Of a stretch of 11,598 bases of DNA, positions 180-10,755 are shown one piece after another. Every line of letters starts with the position of its first letter. Position 1 is the first letter of the stretch. Source of the DNA: a candidate division WOR-3 bacterium (lineage in GTDB: Bacteria; Hydrothermota; Tepidihabitantia; Tepidihabitantales; Tepidihabitantaceae); assembly GCA_039801225.1 (NCBI GenBank), contig JBDRUH010000028.1, forward strand, positions 5,953 to 17,550, read 5' to 3'. Both the position numbers and the translations under genes were made by a program. Under the pieces are notes generated by a model. It was given only the letters and a program-made list of their open reading frames with translations, searched no databases and was not told where the DNA came from.

Positions 180-209
180 TTGACATTATCCTTAATGCCG
201 ATTTATAAT
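180..209 (+). promoter_or_regulatory. sigma70-type promoter of glmM-glmS
   Basis: TTGACA at 180-185, 18-nt spacer, TATAAT at 204-209. Both hexamers match consensus exactly. Confidence 0.8.
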
Positions 210-215
210 TCACTT

Positions 216-1592
216 ATGTCGCAGCCGATTTTTACCATCTCCGGATTAAGAGGAGTGGTTGGCAAGACCCTCTTTGATGAGACGGTTCGGAAATATGCCG
301 CCGCTTACGGCAAATTTCTTGGCGGAGGGACGCTGGTCATTGGCAGAGATACCCGCCCCTCCAGCGAAGCGATTGCTCAGTCAGCCGAAGAAGGGTTAAA
401 AGAGACCGGATGTCAGGTGGTGGATTTAGGAGTCTGCCCGACACCAACAGTTGTTCACTCTGTCCGAACGCATCAGTCTCAGATAAAGGGAGGGCTAATG
501 ATCACCGCCAGCCATAATCCCCTGGAATGGAATGGGATAAAGTTCGTCATATCACCCGGAAGGTTTCTACTTCCGGAGGAGTTTGAGTCATTCCGCATTT
601 TTTTAGGCAAAGCCGACCTGCCCGGTGCCGCTACACCTTCCAGCCGAGAGCCGTTAGCCGAAAACCGAAAGCCGATCTGTCCTATAGAAAATCACCTGCA
701 GGCGATCTTGATGAATCCTTTATTCAAAGATGTAAAAGGTAATAACCTGCGCATTGGCATTGATGCGGTAAATGGGGCCGCCGCCATTATCGCAGATAAA
801 CTACTTCAGGAGTTCGGCTGTGAAGTGGTAAAAATTAACTGCACGCCTGAGAGGTTAAAAAAGGAAGGGTTTCCCCACAGACCAGAACCCACCGCCGAAA
901 ACACCACCGAACTGGCAGAACTGGTAAAGAAAGAAAAACTTGATGCCGGATTTGCCTATGACCCTGATGGTGACCGGTTCAGTTGTATTGATAATAACGG
1001 TAACCCTTTGGGTGAAGAGGCAACAATCTGCCTTGCCTGCCTGTTCCTTTTGCAGTTTGGCGCCGCAAGCCAAAAACCAATAGTTGTCGTCAACCTTTCT
1101 ACCACCCAGGCGGTTGAAGATATCTGCCACCGTTTCGGTGCCAAGGTGGAAAGGGCACCGGTGGGCGAAGTTTGGGTGGTAAAGAGAATGTTAGAGTGCG
1201 GGGCAATATTAGGCGGCGAGGGCAATGGCGGGGTAATCCTACCCGAGATAAACCTCACCCGGGACGGTTTGGTTGCCAGTGCCATTGTCCTCGGTCTTCT
1301 ATCCCGAACAAAAAAACGCCTTTCAGAAATCAGACAGGAAATACCGAGGTATTTCATCGCGAAGTCGACGATAACCCTAGAGCATTTTAATCCGGAAAGT
1401 TTAATTGCCGGTTTTAGTTGGCGGTCTATTGACCAAAGCGATGGACTTAGGATGACCGGTGATGGTTGGTGGTTCCACATCCGGAAAAGTAATACCGAAC
1501 CATTAATCCGGGTGGTGTGTGAGGCAAAGGACCCCGCTCAAGCAAAATTGATTATTGAAAAGGTGGGCGGTCGGCTCAGGAGTCTTGGCTAA
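216..1592 (+). CDS. glmM: Phosphoglucosamine mutase (alpha-D-phosphohexomutase family)
   Basis: ISGLRG N-terminal motif, GRDTRPS, catalytic TASHNP, metal loop DPDGDR, sugar loop GEGNGG, RKSNTEP. Adjacent to glmS. Start moved to ATG 216 because the track's TTG at 180 is the -35 box. Confidence 0.85.
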   Translation: MSQPIFTISGLRGVVGKTLFDETVRKYAAAYGKFLGGGTLVIGRDTRPSSEAIAQSAEEGLKETGCQVVDLGVCPTPTVVHSVRTHQSQIKGGLMITASHNPLEWNGIKFVISPGRFLLPEEFESFRIFLGKADLPGAATPSSREPLAENRKPICPIENHLQAILMNPLFKDVKGNNLRIGIDAVNGAAAIIADKLLQEFGCEVVKINCTPERLKKEGFPHRPEPTAENTTELAELVKKEKLDAGFAYDPDGDRFSCIDNNGNPLGEEATICLACLFLLQFGAASQKPIVVVNLSTTQAVEDICHRFGAKVERAPVGEVWVVKRMLECGAILGGEGNGGVILPEINLTRDGLVASAIVLGLLSRTKKRLSEIRQEIPRYFIAKSTITLEHFNPESLIAGFSWRSIDQSDGLRMTGDGWWFHIRKSNTEPLIRVVCEAKDPAQAKLIIEKVGGRLRSLG

Positions 1593-1594
1593 TG

Positions 1595-1603
1595 TAAGGA
1601 GGT
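1595..1603 (+). promoter_or_regulatory. Shine-Dalgarno of glmS
   Basis: TAAGGAGGT ending 4 nt before ATG 1608. Confidence 0.85.
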
Positions 1604-1607
1604 GGCG

Positions 1608-3458
1608 ATGTGCGGAATTGTCGGTTATATCGGGGAAAAGGATGTTCTTAATGTAATATTGATTGGTTTAGAAAGGCTGGAGTATCGGGGTTACGACTCC
1701 TGCGGTATTGCGATTCTCCAAAAAGAGGGCATCAAAATCTGTAAAACTGCCGGCAGACTCCAGCAATTAAAATCGCTTTTACCAAAAACCCCATTTTCCG
1801 GAAAAGTGGGCATCGGTCACACCCGTTGGGCAACCCACGGTGAGGTGAACAACGAAAACGCCCATCCCTTTACCGACTGCACCGGAAAGATTGCCTTATG
1901 CCACAATGGAATTATTGAGAATTACCGGGAGTTACGCGACCGACTTGTAAAAGAAGGTCATAAATTTGTCTCATCAACCGACACCGAGGTCATTGTTCAT
2001 CTCATTGAGTCCCATTACTCTCCACCGTCTAAAAAAGACACCAAGGAAGGACTTTTTCAGGCGATCAGAAAGGCGACCGCCGAACTGAGGGGCGCTTATG
2101 CACTCCTAATTATTTCCACCGATGTTCCGGACACCATTTATGCGGTGAAGATGGGAAGTCCGATAGTTATCGGCAAGGGTAAAGGTGAAGTTCTGGTTGC
2201 TTCGGACGAACCAGCCCTGGTAGGACTCGCCCGGCAATTGCTGATAATGGAGGACGGTGAAATCGCCACAATCTCCCCGGAGTCCATTTCTCTAAAGAAC
2301 TTTTCTGGCGAACCGGTCCTTAGGCAATTTTCTCCATTATTTCTTAAACCTAGGCAAATTTCCAAGGGTCGTTATGCCCATTTTATGCGCAAGGAGATAT
2401 TTGAGCAACCCAAGGTTCTAAAGGCAAATATTGAACGCCGATTCAAAGACGATATTATAATTCTCGGACCCGATTTTCTTCTCTATCCGGACTTTATTGA
2501 ACAAATCGACCGTATTGTCATTCAGGCATGCGGCACCTCTTATCACGCCGGGGTGGTAGGTAAATACTACTTTGAAAAATTTTCCCGTATCCCGGTTACC
2601 GTGGAAATAAGCTCCGAGTTACGCACCAGCGAATTTCTATTTAGTGAAAGCACCCTGATGATAGCGATCAGCCAGTCTGGCGAGACCGCTGATACCCTTG
2701 CGGCACTCCGGGAAGCCCATTGCCGGGGAATGAAGACACTCGGCGTTATAAATGTTCCGCGTTCCTCAATCGCCCGGGAGGCAGATTCCACAGTTTACAT
2801 CCATGCCGGACCAGAAATCGGTGTTGCCTCAACCAAAGCCTACACCGCCCAGATTCTCAATCTTCTCGCGCTGGCTTTCTACTTTGGCCGAGTGCGTAAC
2901 TCAATTCCTCCTGAGCGTCTCAAAGAGGTCAAAAACGACCTGCAACGACTTCCCGACCTGATAAAAGGAATTCTCAAAATTGACCGTCAGGTTCGGGAGA
3001 TAGCAGCAAGGCTCGCCTTCGCCCGAGACTTCATCTTCTTAGGCAGAGGGATAAACTACCCCAGCGCCTTGGAAGGTGCACTAAAACTGAAGGAGATCGC
3101 CTATGTCCATGCCACCGGTTATCCGGCCGGAGAAATGAAACACGGTCCTATCTCTTTAATTGACGAAAAGGTGCCGGTCATCGGTATTGCACCCAAGGAT
3201 TCGGTCTATGATAAAATGCTCTCCAACCTGGCAGAAGCGAAGGCACGCAAGGGGAAAATAGTGGCGGTTGGAACTGAGGGCGATAAAGGGATTAAGGAAA
3301 TCGCCGATGAGGTTTTTTATATTCCTGAAGTACCGGAGTATCTTTCTCCTATTCTCGTCGCCCCACCCCTGCAACTTTTAGCCTACCATATCGCGGTTCT
3401 GCGCGGCTGTGATGTTGATAAACCGCGCAACCTTGCTAAGTCGGTAACGGTTGAGTAG
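1608..3458 (+). CDS. glmS: Glutamine--fructose-6-phosphate aminotransferase (isomerizing)
   Basis: MCGIVG start (the Ntn catalytic Cys must be N-terminal, so the start is 1608), LEYRGYDS, GHTRWATHG, SQSGETADT, ASTKA, GEMKHGP, C-terminal PRNLAKSVTVE. Confidence 0.98.
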   Translation: MCGIVGYIGEKDVLNVILIGLERLEYRGYDSCGIAILQKEGIKICKTAGRLQQLKSLLPKTPFSGKVGIGHTRWATHGEVNNENAHPFTDCTGKIALCHNGIIENYRELRDRLVKEGHKFVSSTDTEVIVHLIESHYSPPSKKDTKEGLFQAIRKATAELRGAYALLIISTDVPDTIYAVKMGSPIVIGKGKGEVLVASDEPALVGLARQLLIMEDGEIATISPESISLKNFSGEPVLRQFSPLFLKPRQISKGRYAHFMRKEIFEQPKVLKANIERRFKDDIIILGPDFLLYPDFIEQIDRIVIQACGTSYHAGVVGKYYFEKFSRIPVTVEISSELRTSEFLFSESTLMIAISQSGETADTLAALREAHCRGMKTLGVINVPRSSIAREADSTVYIHAGPEIGVASTKAYTAQILNLLALAFYFGRVRNSIPPERLKEVKNDLQRLPDLIKGILKIDRQVREIAARLAFARDFIFLGRGINYPSALEGALKLKEIAYVHATGYPAGEMKHGPISLIDEKVPVIGIAPKDSVYDKMLSNLAEAKARKGKIVAVGTEGDKGIKEIADEVFYIPEVPEYLSPILVAPPLQLLAYHIAVLRGCDVDKPRNLAKSVTVE

Positions 3459-6005
3459 TTAAAAGTTACCCAGTGGCTCATATAGTTTAAAGCCGAGTGT
3501 CCAGCGAAGGGCAAAGGGTCTCTCCCCTTCTTCTGGATGGCTTTTCCAAATTGGAAAGTCGGCATAAAACATTCCCAACTTCAGCCGGATTCCGGCATCA
3601 AACAAGGGCTTAAAGAAATCGGGTTGATTTAGACTGTCAGCAACATTACCAATATCAAGAAATGGTTGTAAGCCGAGAAACGGCAGGTGTAAATTTATAT
3701 TTATACCATAAGCATATCTACCATGGTGATAAACTCCGTAGTATCCCCGGCAGTTCACATCTCCATCATAGTGCCAGCGCTCCTGACCCGAGAAAGAGCC
3801 TTTGTATCCCCAGGAGAGCGGCTCTGCAGGTGTATATGAAAGCCCACCAGAGAGGTAAAACTCCTCCTGGGCGGGCGCGCTCCCCGATATTAACCCGGCA
3901 AATAGCCGGATGGTGAAAGGAGTTATGCCGGGGAGAAATGTCGTAGATTTTTCCTCCAGACTTATCTTGGTATATTGGAACTGCGACAGAACCGGCTTGA
4001 GCGCTCTGCTGAATGTGAGTCGGTGCTTGAATTGAAAAAATGGCGTCTCGCTCCAACTCCCTAAGGTGGTTTTGATTTCTCCAGTGCGCCCCTTTTCCCA
4101 GGCGCGGGCATCTCTTCCGGTGGTGTCAAGAAGTTCATAAAGCCGATACCCAATATTGAATTCGCTTCTCGGTAGCCGGAAAGGCGGACCGATTTCACCA
4201 TTGAGATATACCCTTACACCCCGGTCCCGGAATGAGTTGTCACCGGTAAGACATAATCTCAACCGGCAGGGAGAAAAGAGAAGCGGAGTTTGATAACTGA
4301 TTCCGGTATGCCAGTCCGACTTGTTGGAGTTATAGTTCTCCAGAATGGTCCACTGATGTTCGCCCCGGAGAGGTCCAGCGTCAATGAATCTTCTTCCTTG
4401 GAGCCAGACTCCGGGCTGAAACCCACGATAGTTGTCATACCAAAACCAGGGACCATAAAAAATCTGATAGGTCTCAAAATCGGGAATTGCAAAAATGGGG
4501 TTAAAAAGCTTAGGTTTAGGTCTGGGTTCAGGTTGAGTGTAGGGCACTCTGTTTTGGCAGGTCGATGTGTGACTACCTCCAGATTTACTTTCCTTAACTG
4601 TAATCGGGAAAGCAAGGTTAAAGCCTTGCTCTACCGCTTTAACCTTGGCCTCATCTCCAGCAATGTCCGTGATGCTATTTATTAATGCTTCAACTGTCGG
4701 CGAAGTGCCCCGCTGGGAAAAAAGATAGTGCCGGAGGCAAGAGTCAAATACCATTGTCCCCAGTTCTTCTTCTATTTTACTAAAAACCAGCACCGCCTGC
4801 GATTTACCCACCGCCTCCCGGGTGAAACGGTCCGGTGTTTTTTCAAAGGGAGTAATTATCGGACGGGAGAGGTGATTGGTTGCAGCAATATAGTAATAAA
4901 TACGGTGCAGGTATTCATCAGAAATTCCCTTCAGGAAAGGAATGTTTATTGGCAGGTCAAGTAAATTATCAGCGCCATAAAGGGTTTTTAGATAGCGCAT
5001 CGCCGCATAAGCGGCAAGACCATCGGTTAATGCTGGGTTTTTCTCGCTCTCCGGGTTAACGATTTGACCAAACCATTGACGGGCTATCTCGGTTACTATC
5101 TGCCGTTCCAATAACCGGGTGCCGGGCACTGGTTTCTGATTAAAAATCACTATTCCCGGGGCAGAAATCTCTCCAGGCGCAATGCCAGTTCCATCAACAA
5201 TCGTCAACTGAGGAAAAGGATAATTTCCAAACCACCGGCTAAAAAGCCCCAGACTCAAACGGGCATAAGAGATGATTGCTGACGCTTGCTTTGCCAGGTG
5301 TTGGGAAAGAAAAAGATTAACTCTTGGGGTGGTTGAAGAGTCGGTAAATATAACAAACCGTTGCCCGACAACTAAGCCAAAGTCAGACACATTATTAGCC
5401 CGGAAACGATATCCCGCCTGAGAGCCGGATGATAACGGCTCACCGCTACCCGCCACTTTATAACCCGGTGGCACAACCAATGATATTAGGTAGTCGGCAA
5501 ACACAACTCCACCGGTATCACTTTTGACTTGAGGATGCCAATGAGTAAGTATAAAAACTGAACCCTTTCTTCCCAGATTTTGAATAAGGGCTGGCAGCTT
5601 AGTTGTGAATGATAGTTCTATTACCACTGAATCACCCGGGCTCAACGGCTGGGGAAGAAACAGTTCCATATCAGTCTCATCAATACGATATCGAGCAGGG
5701 GTATTCCCACATTTGAGGAACTCAATTTCAATATCACCCCGCTCCTTTCTACTCAAACGGGTGAAATCATACTGTCCGTTCCTTTCCAGTTCTCTTACCA
5801 GTCGGGTTTGCCGATTGCGAAAAGCGTTCGGGTAAAGCAAGAAGTGAAGTGAGTATAGCGCTTCGGCACTCTGGTTCCTGACGGTTATGGTGCTAATTCC
5901 ATTGATGACGGCTTTTTTCGGCTCAAGCACGGCATTTATTCTATAGGTTATATTAGCAGGGTGAAGCGACAAAAAAATCAGCCCAAGAAAGCAGGAAATT
6001 ACCAC
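3459..6005 (-). CDS. Exported protein: degenerate M1 aminopeptidase-like domain plus C-terminal Omp85/BamA-like beta-barrel
   Basis: Hydrophobic N-terminus. M1-like segments YRINAVL, FLLYPNAF, FGNYPFPQLTIV, TEIARQWFG. Barrel-like segments FYLSGG, NCRGY, FLDIGNV, DAGIRL and terminal Phe. GTG start overlaps the upstream stop. Confidence 0.75.
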   Translation of the reverse strand: MVISCFLGLIFLSLHPANITYRINAVLEPKKAVINGISTITVRNQSAEALYSLHFLLYPNAFRNRQTRLVRELERNGQYDFTRLSRKERGDIEIEFLKCGNTPARYRIDETDMELFLPQPLSPGDSVVIELSFTTKLPALIQNLGRKGSVFILTHWHPQVKSDTGGVVFADYLISLVVPPGYKVAGSGEPLSSGSQAGYRFRANNVSDFGLVVGQRFVIFTDSSTTPRVNLFLSQHLAKQASAIISYARLSLGLFSRWFGNYPFPQLTIVDGTGIAPGEISAPGIVIFNQKPVPGTRLLERQIVTEIARQWFGQIVNPESEKNPALTDGLAAYAAMRYLKTLYGADNLLDLPINIPFLKGISDEYLHRIYYYIAATNHLSRPIITPFEKTPDRFTREAVGKSQAVLVFSKIEEELGTMVFDSCLRHYLFSQRGTSPTVEALINSITDIAGDEAKVKAVEQGFNLAFPITVKESKSGGSHTSTCQNRVPYTQPEPRPKPKLFNPIFAIPDFETYQIFYGPWFWYDNYRGFQPGVWLQGRRFIDAGPLRGEHQWTILENYNSNKSDWHTGISYQTPLLFSPCRLRLCLTGDNSFRDRGVRVYLNGEIGPPFRLPRSEFNIGYRLYELLDTTGRDARAWEKGRTGEIKTTLGSWSETPFFQFKHRLTFSRALKPVLSQFQYTKISLEEKSTTFLPGITPFTIRLFAGLISGSAPAQEEFYLSGGLSYTPAEPLSWGYKGSFSGQERWHYDGDVNCRGYYGVYHHGRYAYGININLHLPFLGLQPFLDIGNVADSLNQPDFFKPLFDAGIRLKLGMFYADFPIWKSHPEEGERPFALRWTLGFKLYEPLGNF

Positions 6006-6661
6006 CCATTGCCCCCTTCGCTTTGCCGAACTACCGGCGTGAAAACCTCAAGACAAATTTTCTGAATCTCGTTGAGTATTCTTTCATCCAGCCCCTGTTT
6101 CTTGAATTGCTTTACCAGACGGGAAAACTCTCCGGACCAAGCATCAGGAGACACCACCCGAATAACAGTGCAAATAGACCGAAAGAACGAAAAATAACCC
6201 CGGCGGCTAATAGCAGGCATCCGTTTAAACCGGAAAATATCGTCAACGGCAACTTCTGCCTTTTTCACCAACTGCCATAACCGCTCTCCCTCTAAAGCCT
6301 TTAATTCATCAGCCTTATCTTTGGGTAAATGTATCGCGGTTTCTCTTGACCGGGGAGAAAGAATTACTACCGGCTCACTTGTCTCTAATTCACCTTCGCC
6401 AAGAGTAATTTTAGCCAAAACATCTGCCACATCCCTCCAAGTTGCTCCACAGGCATTAAGGAACCCGGTGAGTGTCCGCAGCGTCGGATTGGGCACAAGC
6501 CCTTTTTCCAGCCTAAGTATGTATTTATACCCATGTTTAGGATTCAAACCTAACTTCTCTGCCAATTTCATCTGCGATATACCCGCCTTAACTCGCAACA
6601 TCCTTAACCGCTCACCAAACTCCTCCATACCTCTTAGCGCAAATTTCTTTTTTGATACCAT
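5999..6661 (-). CDS. XRE-family helix-turn-helix transcriptional regulator with uncharacterised C-terminal domain
   Basis: FGERLRMLRVKAGISQMKLAEKLG...ILRLEKGLVPNPTLRTL matches the HTH_XRE pattern. Alternative start ATG 6628. Confidence 0.85.
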   Translation of the reverse strand: MVSKKKFALRGMEEFGERLRMLRVKAGISQMKLAEKLGLNPKHGYKYILRLEKGLVPNPTLRTLTGFLNACGATWRDVADVLAKITLGEGELETSEPVVILSPRSRETAIHLPKDKADELKALEGERLWQLVKKAEVAVDDIFRFKRMPAISRRGYFSFFRSICTVIRVVSPDAWSGEFSRLVKQFKKQGLDERILNEIQKICLEVFTPVVRQSEGGNGW

Positions 6662-7340: not shown

Positions 7341-7631
7341 TTAATTTGTGACCTTAGCAACTTTTATTTCCATCGTCTGTGGTTTGTCCCGCCGGTCGTC
7401 TATTTTAATCGTGGTGAGCAGACGGGCGCACCCCATCTGGGCAAGGGTATCATGAATCTCCTTGACTACAGAAAAGACCTTCTCCCACTCCCCTTCTATG
7501 CAGGTGCCCATCGGATTCACCGCATATTTCAAACCGCTTTTTTTAATTAACTCAATTGCCGTTTTAACAAACTGACTAACACCGGTTGAACCGGTGCCAA
7601 CTGGCACAACGCTTAACTCAATAATTATCAT
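7341..7631 (-). CDS. MTH1187/DUF77 family thiamine-binding protein
   Basis: ELSVVPVGT...VSQFV, NPMGTCIEGEW, TTIKIDDRRDK. SD GGGGGTG upstream. Confidence 0.88.
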   Translation of the reverse strand: MIIIELSVVPVGTGSTGVSQFVKTAIELIKKSGLKYAVNPMGTCIEGEWEKVFSVVKEIHDTLAQMGCARLLTTIKIDDRRDKPQTMEIKVAKVTN

Positions 7632-7648: not shown

Positions 7649-8167
7649 TTAAATAAATTGCTCAAACCGGTCCTTTGTCGCCTTACATATCGGACATTTA
7701 CCAGGCGGTTCTGCTCGGGCACAGAGATAGCCACACACCTGGCAACGCCAGACTGGATAGGCAAGGCGGACCACCCCGGTCTTTGCCTCTTTCTTCTCCG
7801 TCACCGTGTAACCTTCGGTAACAAACTGTGGTGGTCGTCTTTCCGGAATAGACCGGTGAGAAATTTTTCCATTAATCCAGTCTTCACTAACATAAAGGGC
7901 ACAGTAACAGGCACCAAACTCCTCTATGTCCGAGTCCCGATAATAGCAGGGGCAGATGATGTCAATGTCCTTTGCCTTCTGCCCCAAGGGCAACCGGCAG
8001 GGGCAGGCGGGATAACCGTAACGCTCCTTATTTGTCAAAAGCCCTGCCACCAGTTTCAGCGTGAACTCCTTATCCGGATTGAGGTAATACCCCGCCTCTT
8101 CAGCCTCCTTTTTCAACTGCTCGTAAAACTTGAGCACCTCGGGTGCGAGCCCTTCTCCCATACTCAA
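7649..8167 (-). CDS. Ferredoxin:thioredoxin reductase catalytic-subunit homolog with C-terminal rubredoxin domain (ferredoxin:disulfide reductase, FDR-type)
   Basis: CPC, CPC and CYC motifs. Rubredoxin-like WRCQVCGY...CPIC. ATGA overlap with the upstream gene (alternative start 8161). Confidence 0.92.
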   Translation of the reverse strand: MSMGEGLAPEVLKFYEQLKKEAEEAGYYLNPDKEFTLKLVAGLLTNKERYGYPACPCRLPLGQKAKDIDIICPCYYRDSDIEEFGACYCALYVSEDWINGKISHRSIPERRPPQFVTEGYTVTEKKEAKTGVVRLAYPVWRCQVCGYLCARAEPPGKCPICKATKDRFEQFI

Positions 8168-8445
8168 ATGCCCAAGAGTTGCTTTATTTTCTCTTCATCA
8201 AACCCGACTACCACCTCATTGTCAATCTGAACTGTCGGAAAGGAACTGCGCGGGTTAAGCTCCTGCACCCGTTTTATCGCCTCCGACCTTTCTTCCCCCT
8301 GGCAAAGGTCAACATCAATGTATTGATATTCTATATTATTACTCTCCAGCAACTCCTTCGTTTTACGACACCAGCCACAGGTGGAAAGGGCATAAAGGGT
8401 TACCCGGTGCTGGTTATTTGTTCCGGCCACTTTCTTAAAGTTCAT
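8164..8445 (-). CDS. Glutaredoxin/NrdH-like redoxin (methanoredoxin-like)
   Basis: LYALSTCGWCRKTK active site, SFPT cis-Pro loop, VVGF. SD AGGAGG. Confidence 0.92.
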   Translation of the reverse strand: MNFKKVAGTNNQHRVTLYALSTCGWCRKTKELLESNNIEYQYIDVDLCQGEERSEAIKRVQELNPRSSFPTVQIDNEVVVGFDEEKIKQLLGI

Positions 8446-8458
8446 CCTTCCTCCTTTT

Positions 8459-8992
8459 CTATAATTTTTCTCCGCATTCCGGGCAGGTTGTTACCCCCTT
8501 GGGCAGCGGCTTTTTGCAGGCAGGGCAGCGGATTATTTTCACACCACAGGGTTGACAGAACTCGGTCTCACCTGAAACCGGTTGATTGCAGTAGGGACAT
8601 CGGCACACCTTTGCGCCCTCCTTCTCCTTCACCTTGCGCAAATAGTCCGCTATCGCCGCATGCAGGGCATCGGCCCCCAAGTTGGAACAATGGAGTTTAT
8701 TTGGTGGTAGACCGCCCAGTTCCTTTGCCACCTCTTCGTTGGTAATCTTCAGCGCCTCCTCAATCTTTTTTCCCTTCGCCATCTCACTCACCATTGAAGA
8801 TACCGCAATCGCCGCACCACAACCAAAGGTCTTAAACTTCACATCGGTTAAAACGCCATCCTTCACCTTAATATAAAATGTCATCATATCACCGCATACT
8901 GGATTGCCCACCTCACCCACACCATCGGGGTCTTCAATCTCACCGACATTTCGCGGGTTGCGAAAATGTTCCATTACTTTTTCCGAATACAT
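8459..8992 (-). CDS. iscU: Fe-S cluster scaffold IscU/NifU-N with C-terminal double zinc ribbon
   Basis: YSEKVMEHFRNPRN, GNPVCGD, FGCGAAIA, LPPNKLHC. Four extra C-terminal CxxC motifs. SD AGGAGG overlaps the upstream stop. Confidence 0.93.
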   Translation of the reverse strand: MYSEKVMEHFRNPRNVGEIEDPDGVGEVGNPVCGDMMTFYIKVKDGVLTDVKFKTFGCGAAIAVSSMVSEMAKGKKIEEALKITNEEVAKELGGLPPNKLHCSNLGADALHAAIADYLRKVKEKEGAKVCRCPYCNQPVSGETEFCQPCGVKIIRCPACKKPLPKGVTTCPECGEKL

Positions 8993-9003
8993 TAAATTTC
9001 CTC

Positions 9004-10230
9004 CTAATTATTTTCTTTATGATTTTCCTCTTGTCCAGATTTGACCGCATAAGGGTCTTCTCCCTTGAGATAGCGGGCGTAAAGCGGTGAGAGGTTGCGT
9101 AACCGCTCAACAATCGCCGGCAGACGCGCCAGCAGATAGTCAACATCCTCATCGGTATTGTCCTTACCCAAAGTAAGGAGCAGAGAGGATTGGGCGATAG
9201 CATGGGGAAGACCGATAGCGAGTAAAACATGCGATGCCTTAAGCGTCCGGGCGGTGCAGGCCGAACCCGATGCTGCGGCAATACCCTCATCATCCAGGGA
9301 CAAAAGCAATGCCTCGCCTTCAACGAATTCAATGCATAGGCTAACATTGCCCGGAATTCGCTCTTGGGGATGACCGGTAAACAAAATTCGCTCAATTTTT
9401 TGTGGCAGTTCATCTCTGAGTCGCTGGGCAAGCCGGTTCATACTCGCTGACCAGGTGGAAAGGTTTCGCTGACATATTTCTGCCGCCTTGCCCATTCCGA
9501 CAATTGCCGGTAGGTTTTCGGTGCCAGCACGTCTGCCCCGTTCCTGAAAACCACCCTCTATCAGAGGGCTTATCCGGGTCTGGGGCTTGATATAAAGCGC
9601 ACCGACACCCTTCGGTCCATAAAAGGACTGGGCAGAAAATGAATAGGCGTCAATGTCAAGTTCGCTAACATCCACCGCTATTCTGCCCACCGCCGCAGTG
9701 CCGTCCGAATGCACTAATACACCCTGTTCATGGCAGACCTTCACTATTTCCTTAAGCGGCTGAATGGTGCCAATCTCATTATTGGCATGCATTATTGAGA
9801 CAAGAATCGTGCCCGAGTGAATCGCCTGAGCCACCTCCTTCGGGTCAACCCGGCCAAACTGGTCAACCTTCACCACCGTCAACTCAAACCCCTGCCTTTT
9901 CAAACTTTTTACCGGCTCAAAAACCGAGGGGTGTTCAATTGCCGAAATGACAATATGGTTTCCCTTTGCTCGGTTTGCCCCAGCAAAGCCTTTTATCGCC
10001 AGGTTGTTACTCTCTGATGCCGAAGCGGTAAAAATAATTGAGTTAGCCTTAGCGTTAATCAGCCGGGCGACCTGCTCTCTTGCCCTTTCCAAAGCATCCC
10101 GGGCAATAATGCCAAAATGGTGAAGACTCTGGGGATTGCCAAATTTTTCTTTCAGAAAAGGAAGCATCTCCTGAAGCGCCTCAGGCAGGAGCGGTGTTGC
10201 CGCCGCATGGTCAAAGTAAACTCTTCTCAT
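9004..10230 (-). CDS. iscS: IscS/NifS-family protein with degenerate PLP catalytic site
   Basis: FGNPQS, IEHPSV, HANNEIGTIQP, FYGPKGVG, RAGTEN and SGSAC are present, but SAHK reads SAQS and SLRFS reads SLLLT. Confidence 0.9.
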   Translation of the reverse strand: MRRVYFDHAAATPLLPEALQEMLPFLKEKFGNPQSLHHFGIIARDALERAREQVARLINAKANSIIFTASASESNNLAIKGFAGANRAKGNHIVISAIEHPSVFEPVKSLKRQGFELTVVKVDQFGRVDPKEVAQAIHSGTILVSIMHANNEIGTIQPLKEIVKVCHEQGVLVHSDGTAAVGRIAVDVSELDIDAYSFSAQSFYGPKGVGALYIKPQTRISPLIEGGFQERGRRAGTENLPAIVGMGKAAEICQRNLSTWSASMNRLAQRLRDELPQKIERILFTGHPQERIPGNVSLCIEFVEGEALLLSLDDEGIAAASGSACTARTLKASHVLLAIGLPHAIAQSSLLLTLGKDNTDEDVDYLLARLPAIVERLRNLSPLYARYLKGEDPYAVKSGQEENHKENN

Positions 10231-10755
10231 TTACTATTAGACTACTTTTCGGGAATAAGGGATTTGAAAATTCTGAAAAACAAGGTCAAATATTATTTTA
10301 GATGAAAACAGGCAAAAGGCAAACCAAAGGCTGAATTCAATATTGATTTTCACCCGGTTTTAAAATAAAAATTTCATTAGATTTTTAGATGGACTGGAAC
10401 TTTTCCTTTTGACTTTCTTCTCAATTCAGATTTTTTACCGCTTTTTAGTTTAGAACTTAGTGTCAAAGAAAAAAACCGTTTAACCCAAATTTTTAGACCA
10501 AGTTTTAACACTATCCCTTCACTTGATTTACCACTTGAATTTAAATCATATTTTAACATCAAACCAAAAACCTATTTAGGAAAGGGTTTTACCACCCTAG
10601 TGCTGGAGGGGACAGCCCCCCAGGTAAACCTGTCTTTAAATTAAGTTATTTAATTGCGAGACTTAACTCAATTTTAGCCATTAGAATTTTGTGTATATAT
10701 AAATACACTTAGCCTTTACACACTTTTCCTTAAAGAAAGAGTTAGGATTGTAGTT

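Follow-up and report, generated by a model that had tools for sequence, protein, structure and literature searches.

The IscS protein of Archaeoglobus fulgidus is treated in reviews, so far as the excerpted text of PMC8918507 goes, as an unusual single example, whose sulfur source and cofactor still raise questions. Aspartate (Asp199) stands in place of its Schiff-base lysine, it is without desulfurase activity, and it contributes a cysteine ligand to the [2Fe-2S] cluster of IscU (PMC7585200 and PMC8918507, in excerpt). It binds pyridoxamine phosphate (PMP) non-covalently, a D199K variant likewise holds PMP, and it has been proposed to act as a scaffold partner only, donating one Cys ligand (excerpts of PMC8918507). 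Sulfide is hypothesised to be the source of sulfur (passages of PMC8918507 and PMC13066941). IscS1 of Methanosarcina acetivorans is reported in excerpts of PMC7585200 to lack the catalytic lysine and is proposed there to act like the A. fulgidus protein. An inactive IscS paralog with IscU is, then, already known. The subject here is a bacterial gene of this kind, found on a stretch of 11,598 nucleotides (henceforth the window) from contig 28 of a 1.5-Mb, 72-contig WOR-3-type genome estimated to be 88.8% complete. What the analysis adds is how broad and how conserved the bacterial clade of this gene is, its standing in a WOR-3 family as part of the sole scaffold, and the systematic misannotation of the clade.

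A minimal iron-sulfur cluster (ISC) system, called MIS and made up of the pair MisS-MisU with neither dedicated chaperones nor A-type carriers, has reportedly been put forward by Garcia et al. 2022. Passages of PMC13066941 and PMC12192291 present MisS as a cysteine desulfurase. The demands made on such an enzyme can be seen in E. coli IscS, where, according to an excerpt of PMC9978102, activity is abolished by H104Q, D180G, Q183E, K206A, and C328S, while R354K retains activity. These positions, in E. coli numbering, provide the yardstick for what follows.

An IscS homolog that has lost its catalytic residues

The gene in question and the residues of its product that matter most are these:

9004..10230, minus strand: IscS/NifS-type (MisS-like) gene without the lysine codon, encoding protein P0001 of 408 aa in an open, full-length frame
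9625..9630, minus strand: Gln201-Ser202, replacing the His-Lys pair whose lysine forms the Schiff base with pyridoxal phosphate (PLP); codons CAG and TCC (Ser202 at 9627-9625)
9694..9705, minus strand: Asp176-Gly-Thr-Ala179 (DGTA; canonical DAVQ), keeping the Asp that faces N1 of PLP, with Ala at the Gln183 equivalent
9178..9180, minus strand: Leu351 (codon CTC, within SSLLLTLG), replacing the Arg that holds the substrate carboxylate (E. coli Arg354)
9238..9258, minus strand: mobile loop from Cys325 (TGC at 9258-9256, within SGSAC) to Lys331, a signature of the clade
9931..9933, minus strand: His100 (codon CAC), the retained equivalent of PLP-stacking His104

Its sequence says that P0001 is an IscS/NifS-type I class-V protein. 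The match to PF00266 (Aminotran_5; E 1.9e-80) runs over residues 4-366, a full-length class-V aminotransferase fold, and the best match among NCBIfam models is to NifS (TIGR03402), at 476.7 bits. That score falls under the equivalog cut-off of 530.75, as do those against IscS NF010611 (395.4 bits; cut-off 548) and TIGR02006 (385.2 bits; cut-off 643.2). Amongst solved structures, P0001 is matched by A. fulgidus IscS (4eb5; E 8.9e-121, 406.6 bits), by the Lys-bearing archaeal chain 9wep at a still higher score (425.9 bits), and by canonical IscS/NifS proteins, E. coli IscS (1p3w/3lvl) and the NifS-like protein of Thermotoga maritima (1ecx), at E 4.7e-93 and 9.1e-78. The best-scoring chains, 9wep, 9wer, 9wew, 9wf8, 9wfb, 9wfe, and 9wfy, form a series of 406-aa variants named cysteine desulfurase, and they themselves vary at the positions under discussion, some with VVFS for VRFS or DAAP for DAVQ. 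A literature search for the codes 9wep, 9wer, and 9wfe returned no relevant paper.

When P0001 is aligned with solved Lys-bearing desulfurases, Ser202 falls opposite the lysine of HK, Ala179 opposite the glutamine of DAVQ, and Leu351 opposite the arginine of RFS. Residues 199-202 read SAQS, and thus the histidine before the lysine is replaced as well. In terms of the set that makes a competent type I desulfurase, the equivalents of Lys206, Gln183, His205, and Arg354 are all replaced, the last by a hydrophobic residue, and those of His104, Asp180, and Cys328 are all present (His100, Asp176, and Cys325). In the window's family the phosphate loop has SAS in place of GGT. An initial reading made from the letters of the sequence without database searches (the sequence-only reading) had called Ser202, DGTA, Leu351, and the intact Cys325, and direct reading of the codons agrees with it on every one.

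A large clade with the same losses

If a gene has lost four catalytic residues, the first question is whether it is still a gene. P0001 might be a decaying pseudogene or an artefact of assembly or sequencing, and the missing catalytic residues, though nothing further, would fit such a view. A word-indexed homolog search provides the answer. It listed 120 proteins, the query and 119 matches at 57-90% identity, and in none of them is there a lysine in the column of Ser202: 116 have Ser, three Gln, and one Thr. All 120 lack arginine in the column of Leu351 and all 120 retain the cysteine. The substitutions therefore recur in many assemblies and, with the searches described below, in more than eight phyla, the frame is open over its full length, and many positions are invariant. 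Decay and error are refuted by this conservation, which makes either one next to inconceivable as an explanation of P0001, and the earlier judgement that the changes were not sequencing errors stands. To judge from its relatives, P0001 is under selection rather than decaying. The same reading took the protein for a bacterial member of its class, and in accord with this the close homologs at 68-74% identity carry the label candidate division WOR-3.

How far does the pattern extend? Within a sample of the phylum (121 genomes, of which the 30 best loci were read), 20 loci, all at 51% identity or above, have no lysine. They come from the window's own family, from three more families of its order, and from one further family of its class. 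The remaining ten loci, at 49% identity or below, have DAVQ, HK, and R. Beyond the phylum, an exhaustive HMMER search was made of representatives at 50% identity, and the best 150 were read: 125 have both Lys and Arg, and 25 are without one or both, 24 of these without Lys. The residues found at the lysine site in these representatives are Gln, Ser, Gly, Arg, Asn, Thr, Asp, Leu, Ala, Met, and Pro. Ten of the Lys-less clusters bear labels such as Nitrospirae, Latescibacteria, Gemmatimonadota, Zixibacteria, and "bacterium BMS3Abin14".

A further search used an alignment of ten rows as query against one genome per species and kept the best 80 of 601 stretches; it samples the loci rather than counting them all, and it yielded few WOR-3 records. 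Lysine is absent from 23 of these 80 named loci, 21 of them bacterial and two archaeal, with nine phyla labelled and one locus unlabelled. Besides the unlabelled one, there are seven from Nitrospirota, six from Chloroflexota, two from Thermodesulfobacteriota, two from Bathyarchaeota, and one each from Myxococcota, Aminicenantota, Elusimicrobiota, Actinomycetota, and Nitrospinota. The Gln site in the 23 is occupied by Ala (21), Gly (1), or Ser (1); 22 have Val, Leu, or Ile at the Arg site, the remaining row being cut by a contig end; and the loop Cys is present in every one. On the alignments, the losses of Lys, Gln, and Arg travel together.

The four collections were pooled. The pooled alignment contains 368 distinct sequences, divided evenly into 184 that lack the lysine and 184 that have it; they are enriched for relatives of the query and so are not independent. 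Cys325 is 100% Cys in both groups alike. In the Lys-less group, Asp176 and Glu73 are also at 100%, His100 at 98%, and Thr237 at 90%. The column of Gln183 is Ala in 94% of the Lys-less group versus Gln in 96% of the Lys-bearing, and the column of Arg354 is Val, Leu, or Met in the former and Arg in 182 of the 184 members of the latter. Judged from these alignments, P0001 is no rarity but belongs to a very large clade that is itself conserved. One locus, L049, from a metagenome-assembled genome labelled Nitrospirae bacterium, falls inside the Lys-less clade yet keeps the lysine (GHK); its Gln and Arg sites are occupied by Cys and Gln, respectively. This may be an intermediate or a reverted state.

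The literature searched, which excluded the founding MIS paper, holds no description of a bacterial clade of Lys-less IscS proteins. On Lys-less IscS it gave the cases of A. fulgidus and M. acetivorans only.

Could another lysine serve?

The clade also has a signature of its own. Six residues past Cys325 there is a lysine found in 92% of the Lys-less group versus 9% of the Lys-bearing, and it is followed by a residue that differs in the same manner, Ala in 77% versus Pro in 83%:

9238-9240, minus strand: Lys331; the loop reads LKASHVL, where Lys-bearing enzymes have LEPSHVL
9235-9237, minus strand: Ala332; Lys331-Ala332 stands in place of Glu-Pro

A lysine so distributed, together with a B6 pocket whose His100 and Asp176 are conserved, invites the idea that P0001 is still a desulfurase, or some other B6 enzyme, that takes a different lysine as Schiff base or general base, either Lys331 or Lys207 of YGPKG. 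Against this, Gln183, His205, and Arg354 are all gone along with Lys206. A. fulgidus IscS has the same losses of Gln and Arg and is inactive, and its D199K variant still binds PMP (PMC8918507, in excerpt). I consider an enzyme of this sort improbable. Lys207 was discarded as a stand-in for the Schiff-base lysine, since the Lys-bearing enzymes conserve it to a similar degree (96% vs 88%, with the Lys-bearing group the higher) and some Lys-less members have Arg, Gln, Pro, Asn, Thr, or Ser in its place.

The adjoining iscU and its gene string

Downstream of the gene, on the same strand, lies a string of four more:

8459..8992, minus strand: IscU scaffold with a fused C-terminal double zinc ribbon (NifU_N E 6.3e-51; DZR)
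8164..8445, minus strand: glutaredoxin-like protein (Glutaredoxin E 2.3e-14), starting 13 bp after iscU
7649..8167, minus strand: fusion of a domain of the ferredoxin:thioredoxin reductase (FTR) catalytic type (FeThRed_B E 6.6e-23) and a rubredoxin-like domain (RUBY_RBDX E 2.2e-13)
7341..7631, minus strand: thiamine-binding-type protein of the MTH1187 family (Thiamine_BP E 6.3e-36; TIGR00106), the last gene of the conserved string

The start of iscU is 11 bp after the stop codon of the IscS-like gene. The IscU protein keeps Cys33, Asp35, Cys58, His101, and Cys102, and its gene is the sole match to NifU_N in the genome. The association is not peculiar to this genome. IscU lies within the fetched flank in all 11 same-family loci, the window's own counted, and each of five same-family relatives, 96-100% complete, has exactly one IscU, adjoining the Lys-less gene. 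Further afield, IscU is in the locus of 17 of the 23 Lys-less named loci. The whole string of five, from the IscS-like gene through iscU, the glutaredoxin gene, and the FTR-type/rubredoxin gene to the MTH1187-family gene, is kept in the five same-family relatives examined (L120-L124).

The FTR-type/rubredoxin gene overlaps the stop of the glutaredoxin gene by 4 bp. Its product matches PDB 4tpu at E 3.1e-60, probably the ferredoxin-dependent disulfide reductase of M. acetivorans. A literature search on the FTR-like/rubredoxin enzyme of that organism found nothing useful. The downstream genes may constitute a redox module, acting on thiols or persulfides, for the assembly system.

The window and two relatives (L120 and L122) have the double zinc ribbon (four CxxC pairs; window 8459-8610) as a fusion with IscU. 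In L121, L124, L125, and L126, a similar Cys-rich piece is a separate, overlapping open reading frame (ORF), in another frame and just past a short IscU. The split could reflect a separate small gene, a frameshift, or a difference in assembly.

Does P0001 bind this IscU? A model of the complex was made, in three runs, from P0001 and residues 1-125 of IscU. It has an ipSAE of 0.76, where the best control gave 0.00; among solved complexes 116 of 157 attain that value, and among mismatched pairs 2 of 215. At least 72% of contacts agree among the runs, and the predicted local distance difference score (pLDDT) of the partner is at least 89. The modelled interface brings IscU 30-38 and 54-62, where the cluster cysteines are, against residues 302-314, 323, 332, 342-347, and 379-397 of P0001. 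The model thus gives the canonical interface and supports binding. Since IscS-IscU complexes have already been solved, what it conveys is a likeness to them and not proof that P0001 binds.

An alternative view is that P0001 has a function unrelated to IscU, in redox, iron stress, or regulation, and that the adjacency is nothing but inherited synteny. There are Lys-less copies that suit it. In three more distant WOR-3 families (L127-L129) the gene has no IscU within the 5-8 kb fetched, and its neighbours are two rubrerythrin-like genes and a peroxiredoxin gene (G010), genes for a PAS-domain protein and a ferritin-like DUF2383 protein (G066), or those for PdxA and a sulfur-carrier-type protein resembling DsrE (G110). 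However, in the window's family the gene always adjoins a single IscU, an IscU is also present in most of the Lys-less named loci, and the modelled interface is the canonical one. For P0001, a function that dispenses with IscU therefore seems unlikely.

Fe-S machinery in the rest of the genome and the source of sulfur

[quoted passage not shown] SufB/D, sought with PF01458, had no match in the window's genome at its 88.8% completeness and none in any of the five same-family relatives at 96-100%. With SufB/D found in none of the five and one IscU in each, the Lys-less IscS with its IscU is the only recognizable de novo scaffold of the family. The A-type carrier (PF01521) also had no match in the window's genome. 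One Nfu-type gene is present there, away from the IscS-iscU pair.

The genome does have a protein that could supply sulfur:

L001:1489-2658 (contig 15): Lys-bearing IscS/NifS-type paralog, with GHK, SGSAC, and VRFS, and Ser at the Gln position

This paralog scores 515.9 bits against the NifS model. Nineteen other sampled WOR-3 genomes carry a Lys-less gene, and 18 of them have at least one paralog of this sort. Twenty-one paralog ORFs were read in those 18 genomes (L130-L146 among them), and all have HK, Arg, and Cys; at the position of Gln183, 20 of the 21 have Ser or Ala (DAVS or DAVA). The exception among the genomes is G061, 96% complete, where the Lys-less gene occurs without any Lys-bearing paralog of the IscS/NifS type, the next-best class-V protein being SufS-like (163 bits).

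These paralogs raise the possibility that P0001 is mainly a persulfide carrier, in the manner of SufE or SufU, and that persulfide made from cysteine passes from the Lys-bearing paralog, or from a SufS-like protein, to Cys325 and on to IscU, with sulfide playing no part. Such a relay would account for the co-occurrence of paralog and Lys-less gene, would fit the invariance of Cys325, and would find suitable chemistry in the conserved glutaredoxin and FTR-type/rubredoxin genes. It fares less well with G061, where the donor is wanting, and with the fact that the paralog is unlinked to the operon. It also overlaps the explanation given below, from which it differs solely in the source of sulfur. 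I hold it possible, with the odds clearly against it.

A proposed non-catalytic partner for IscU

I propose that P0001 is a non-catalytic partner of IscU, like IscS of A. fulgidus, and would put the probability of this at about 0.72. The grounds are the loss of the catalytic set, the conservation of that loss, the pairing with IscU, the failure to find another scaffold, the complex model, the A. fulgidus precedent, and the presence of a Lys-bearing paralog; the bacterial clade also keeps the features needed for a role of the A. fulgidus type. In this proposal, P0001 would no longer be a cysteine desulfurase working through PLP and lysine, and would have kept the dimeric scaffold and the mobile-loop Cys. 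It would bind the IscU encoded by the adjoining gene through the usual IscS-IscU interface, and Cys325 would be presented to the cluster site of IscU (Cys33, Asp35, Cys58, and Cys102), where it would be the fourth ligand, or would relay persulfide, during construction of the [2Fe-2S] cluster. Free sulfide or the Lys-bearing paralog, rather than turnover of cysteine on P0001, would provide the sulfur. The role of the cysteine as ligand, the source of sulfur, and a non-covalent occupant of the B6 site (PMP or PLP) are all suggested by analogy with the A. fulgidus protein.

Several considerations weigh against the proposal. The inactivity of P0001 is deduced from its residues. The strong conservation of the B6 pocket (His100, Asp176, and Thr237) means that some cofactor-dependent chemistry is possible. 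The distribution of Lys331 is accounted for by no explanation so far. As the copies in L127-L129 do not adjoin IscU, the partnership may not hold throughout the clade. Because G061 lacks the paralog, the paralog is not a universal sulfur donor, and with Ser or Ala at the position of Gln183 the paralogs that do exist are only putative desulfurases by their sequence.

A bolder version, which I offer as speculation that is more probably wrong than right, is that housekeeping Fe-S assembly in this large clade of anaerobes, and throughout the WOR-3 family, proceeds with no desulfurase step on the scaffold complex. The dead IscS would be an obligate co-scaffold and Cys ligand, sulfide would enter directly, the B6 cofactor would perhaps be structural, and reduction of the thiols would fall to the linked ferredoxin-type disulfide reductase and the glutaredoxin. 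If this is true, then the oddity of A. fulgidus would be the tip of a widespread ISC-type biogenesis that is independent of cysteine.

A pattern of loss like that of A. fulgidus is common and conserved in bacteria, found in 23 of the 80 named loci and, among the 368 nearest distinct sequences of the pool, in one of every two, and the clade offers many new bacterial test cases of an IscS-IscU machine that runs without desulfurase chemistry. The names in the databases conceal this. The sequence-only reading foresaw that such proteins would be misannotated, and it was right: the source names say cysteine desulfurase, all the named members of the Lys-less representative clusters are called the same, and P0001 passes the cut-off of the looser "IscS subfamily" model NF002806, narrowly, with 307 bits against 304. 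The name affects how sulfur and Fe-S metabolism is reconstructed for uncultured anaerobes.

Other features of the window

Upstream of the IscS-like start is a site that resembles a promoter:

10295..10322, minus strand: TTGCCT-16-TAAAAT, 9/12 match

The evidence for it is weak, since the scan found nine such sites versus 6.9 +/- 2.7 in shuffled sequence, not above chance. The window positions 180-3458 (plus strand) and 3459-6661 (minus strand) are occupied by ordinary genes, those for a GlmM-type phosphoglucosamine mutase, GlmS, a large protein with a weak match to M1 peptidases, and a helix-turn-helix (HTH) protein. Two relatives, L120 and L121, share the synteny of the last two. The best match of the GlmM-type protein is to the archaeal-type model, under that model's cut-off.

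Comparison with known systems

The closest described protein is IscS2 of A. fulgidus (4eb5, 4eb7, 4hvk, and 4r5f), a type I IscS/NifS fold from which the Schiff-base lysine has likewise been lost. Aligned with P0001, 4eb5 reads SSND (with Asp199), DATA, and GTLLLTLG. The sequence-only reading had named Asp at the lysine position, a similar LLLTLG segment, the missing desulfurase activity, and the donated Cys, and it is borne out by this alignment and by the excerpts of PMC7585200 and PMC8918507. Its comparison needs one amendment: the A. fulgidus protein is indeed inactive, though not free of cofactor, for it binds PMP non-covalently (PMC8918507, in excerpt). Like its archaeal counterpart, P0001 has Ala at the Gln183 position (DGTA versus DATA), Leu at that of Arg354, and the same LLLTLG string; it keeps the loop Cys and the His and Asp of the B6 pocket; and it is paired in the genome with an IscU whose cluster ligands, Asp35 included, are all intact. 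Unlike it, P0001 has Ser202 in place of Asp199 (most other bacterial members have Gln), Gln201 in place of Asn, Lys331-Ala332 in the loop in place of Gln-Pro, the SAS phosphate loop of its family in place of GGT, and a bacterial host.

Do the two descend from one Lys-less ancestor? A. fulgidus IscS is clearly closest, by sequence scores, to Asp-type proteins of Bathyarchaeota, one of which (L061) scores 505 bits against 4eb5 versus 436 against the Lys-bearing 9wep series. Representative P0128, considered as the A. fulgidus cluster, was ruled out by its higher score against the 9wep series. Trees were built with the trait columns removed and with the Asp-type sequences L061, L082, and L105 as stand-ins for A. 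fulgidus IscS, which was not included. A FastTree phylogeny of 111 rows requires three changes of lysine state and sets the Asp-type sequences amid Lys-bearing archaeal ones. A quick IQ-TREE phylogeny under the posterior mean site frequency (PMSF) model, of 54 rows chosen by hand from the 111, splits 26 bacterial Lys-less rows and L049 from the remaining 27 with an approximate likelihood-ratio support (SH-aLRT) of 100, and it places the three Asp-type rows within an archaeal group (98) alongside Lys-bearing sequences, apart from the bacterial clade. When the 30 degenerate rows are constrained to one clade, however, the log-likelihood is 5.45 above that of the free search, and the approximately unbiased (AU) test gives p 0.626. 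The shared strings D-x-T-A and L-L-x-T-L-G, taken as sequence, fit either common descent or convergence. The assignment of P0001 to a class of pseudo-desulfurases thus holds as regards the losses of Lys, Gln, His, and Arg, the retained Cys, and the adjoining IscU; as regards a common origin, the free trees keep the two apart and the constrained tree is not disfavoured.

M. acetivorans IscS1 resembles P0001 in the loss of lysine; it is archaeal and is compared here by its published description alone. The resemblance to MIS lies in the arrangement: an adjoining pair of genes, S and U, in a genome where neither the A-type carrier nor SufB/D was found (HscA and HscB were not searched for). The difference is in the S protein, for the published account of MisS makes it a cysteine desulfurase and P0001 is without the catalytic residues. 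With canonical IscS/NifS, finally, P0001 shares homology over its full length, the loop with its Cys, YGPKG, and the surface that binds IscU, and it departs from them in scoring under the equivalog cut-offs and in having replaced every one of the equivalents of Lys206, His205, Gln183, and Arg354.

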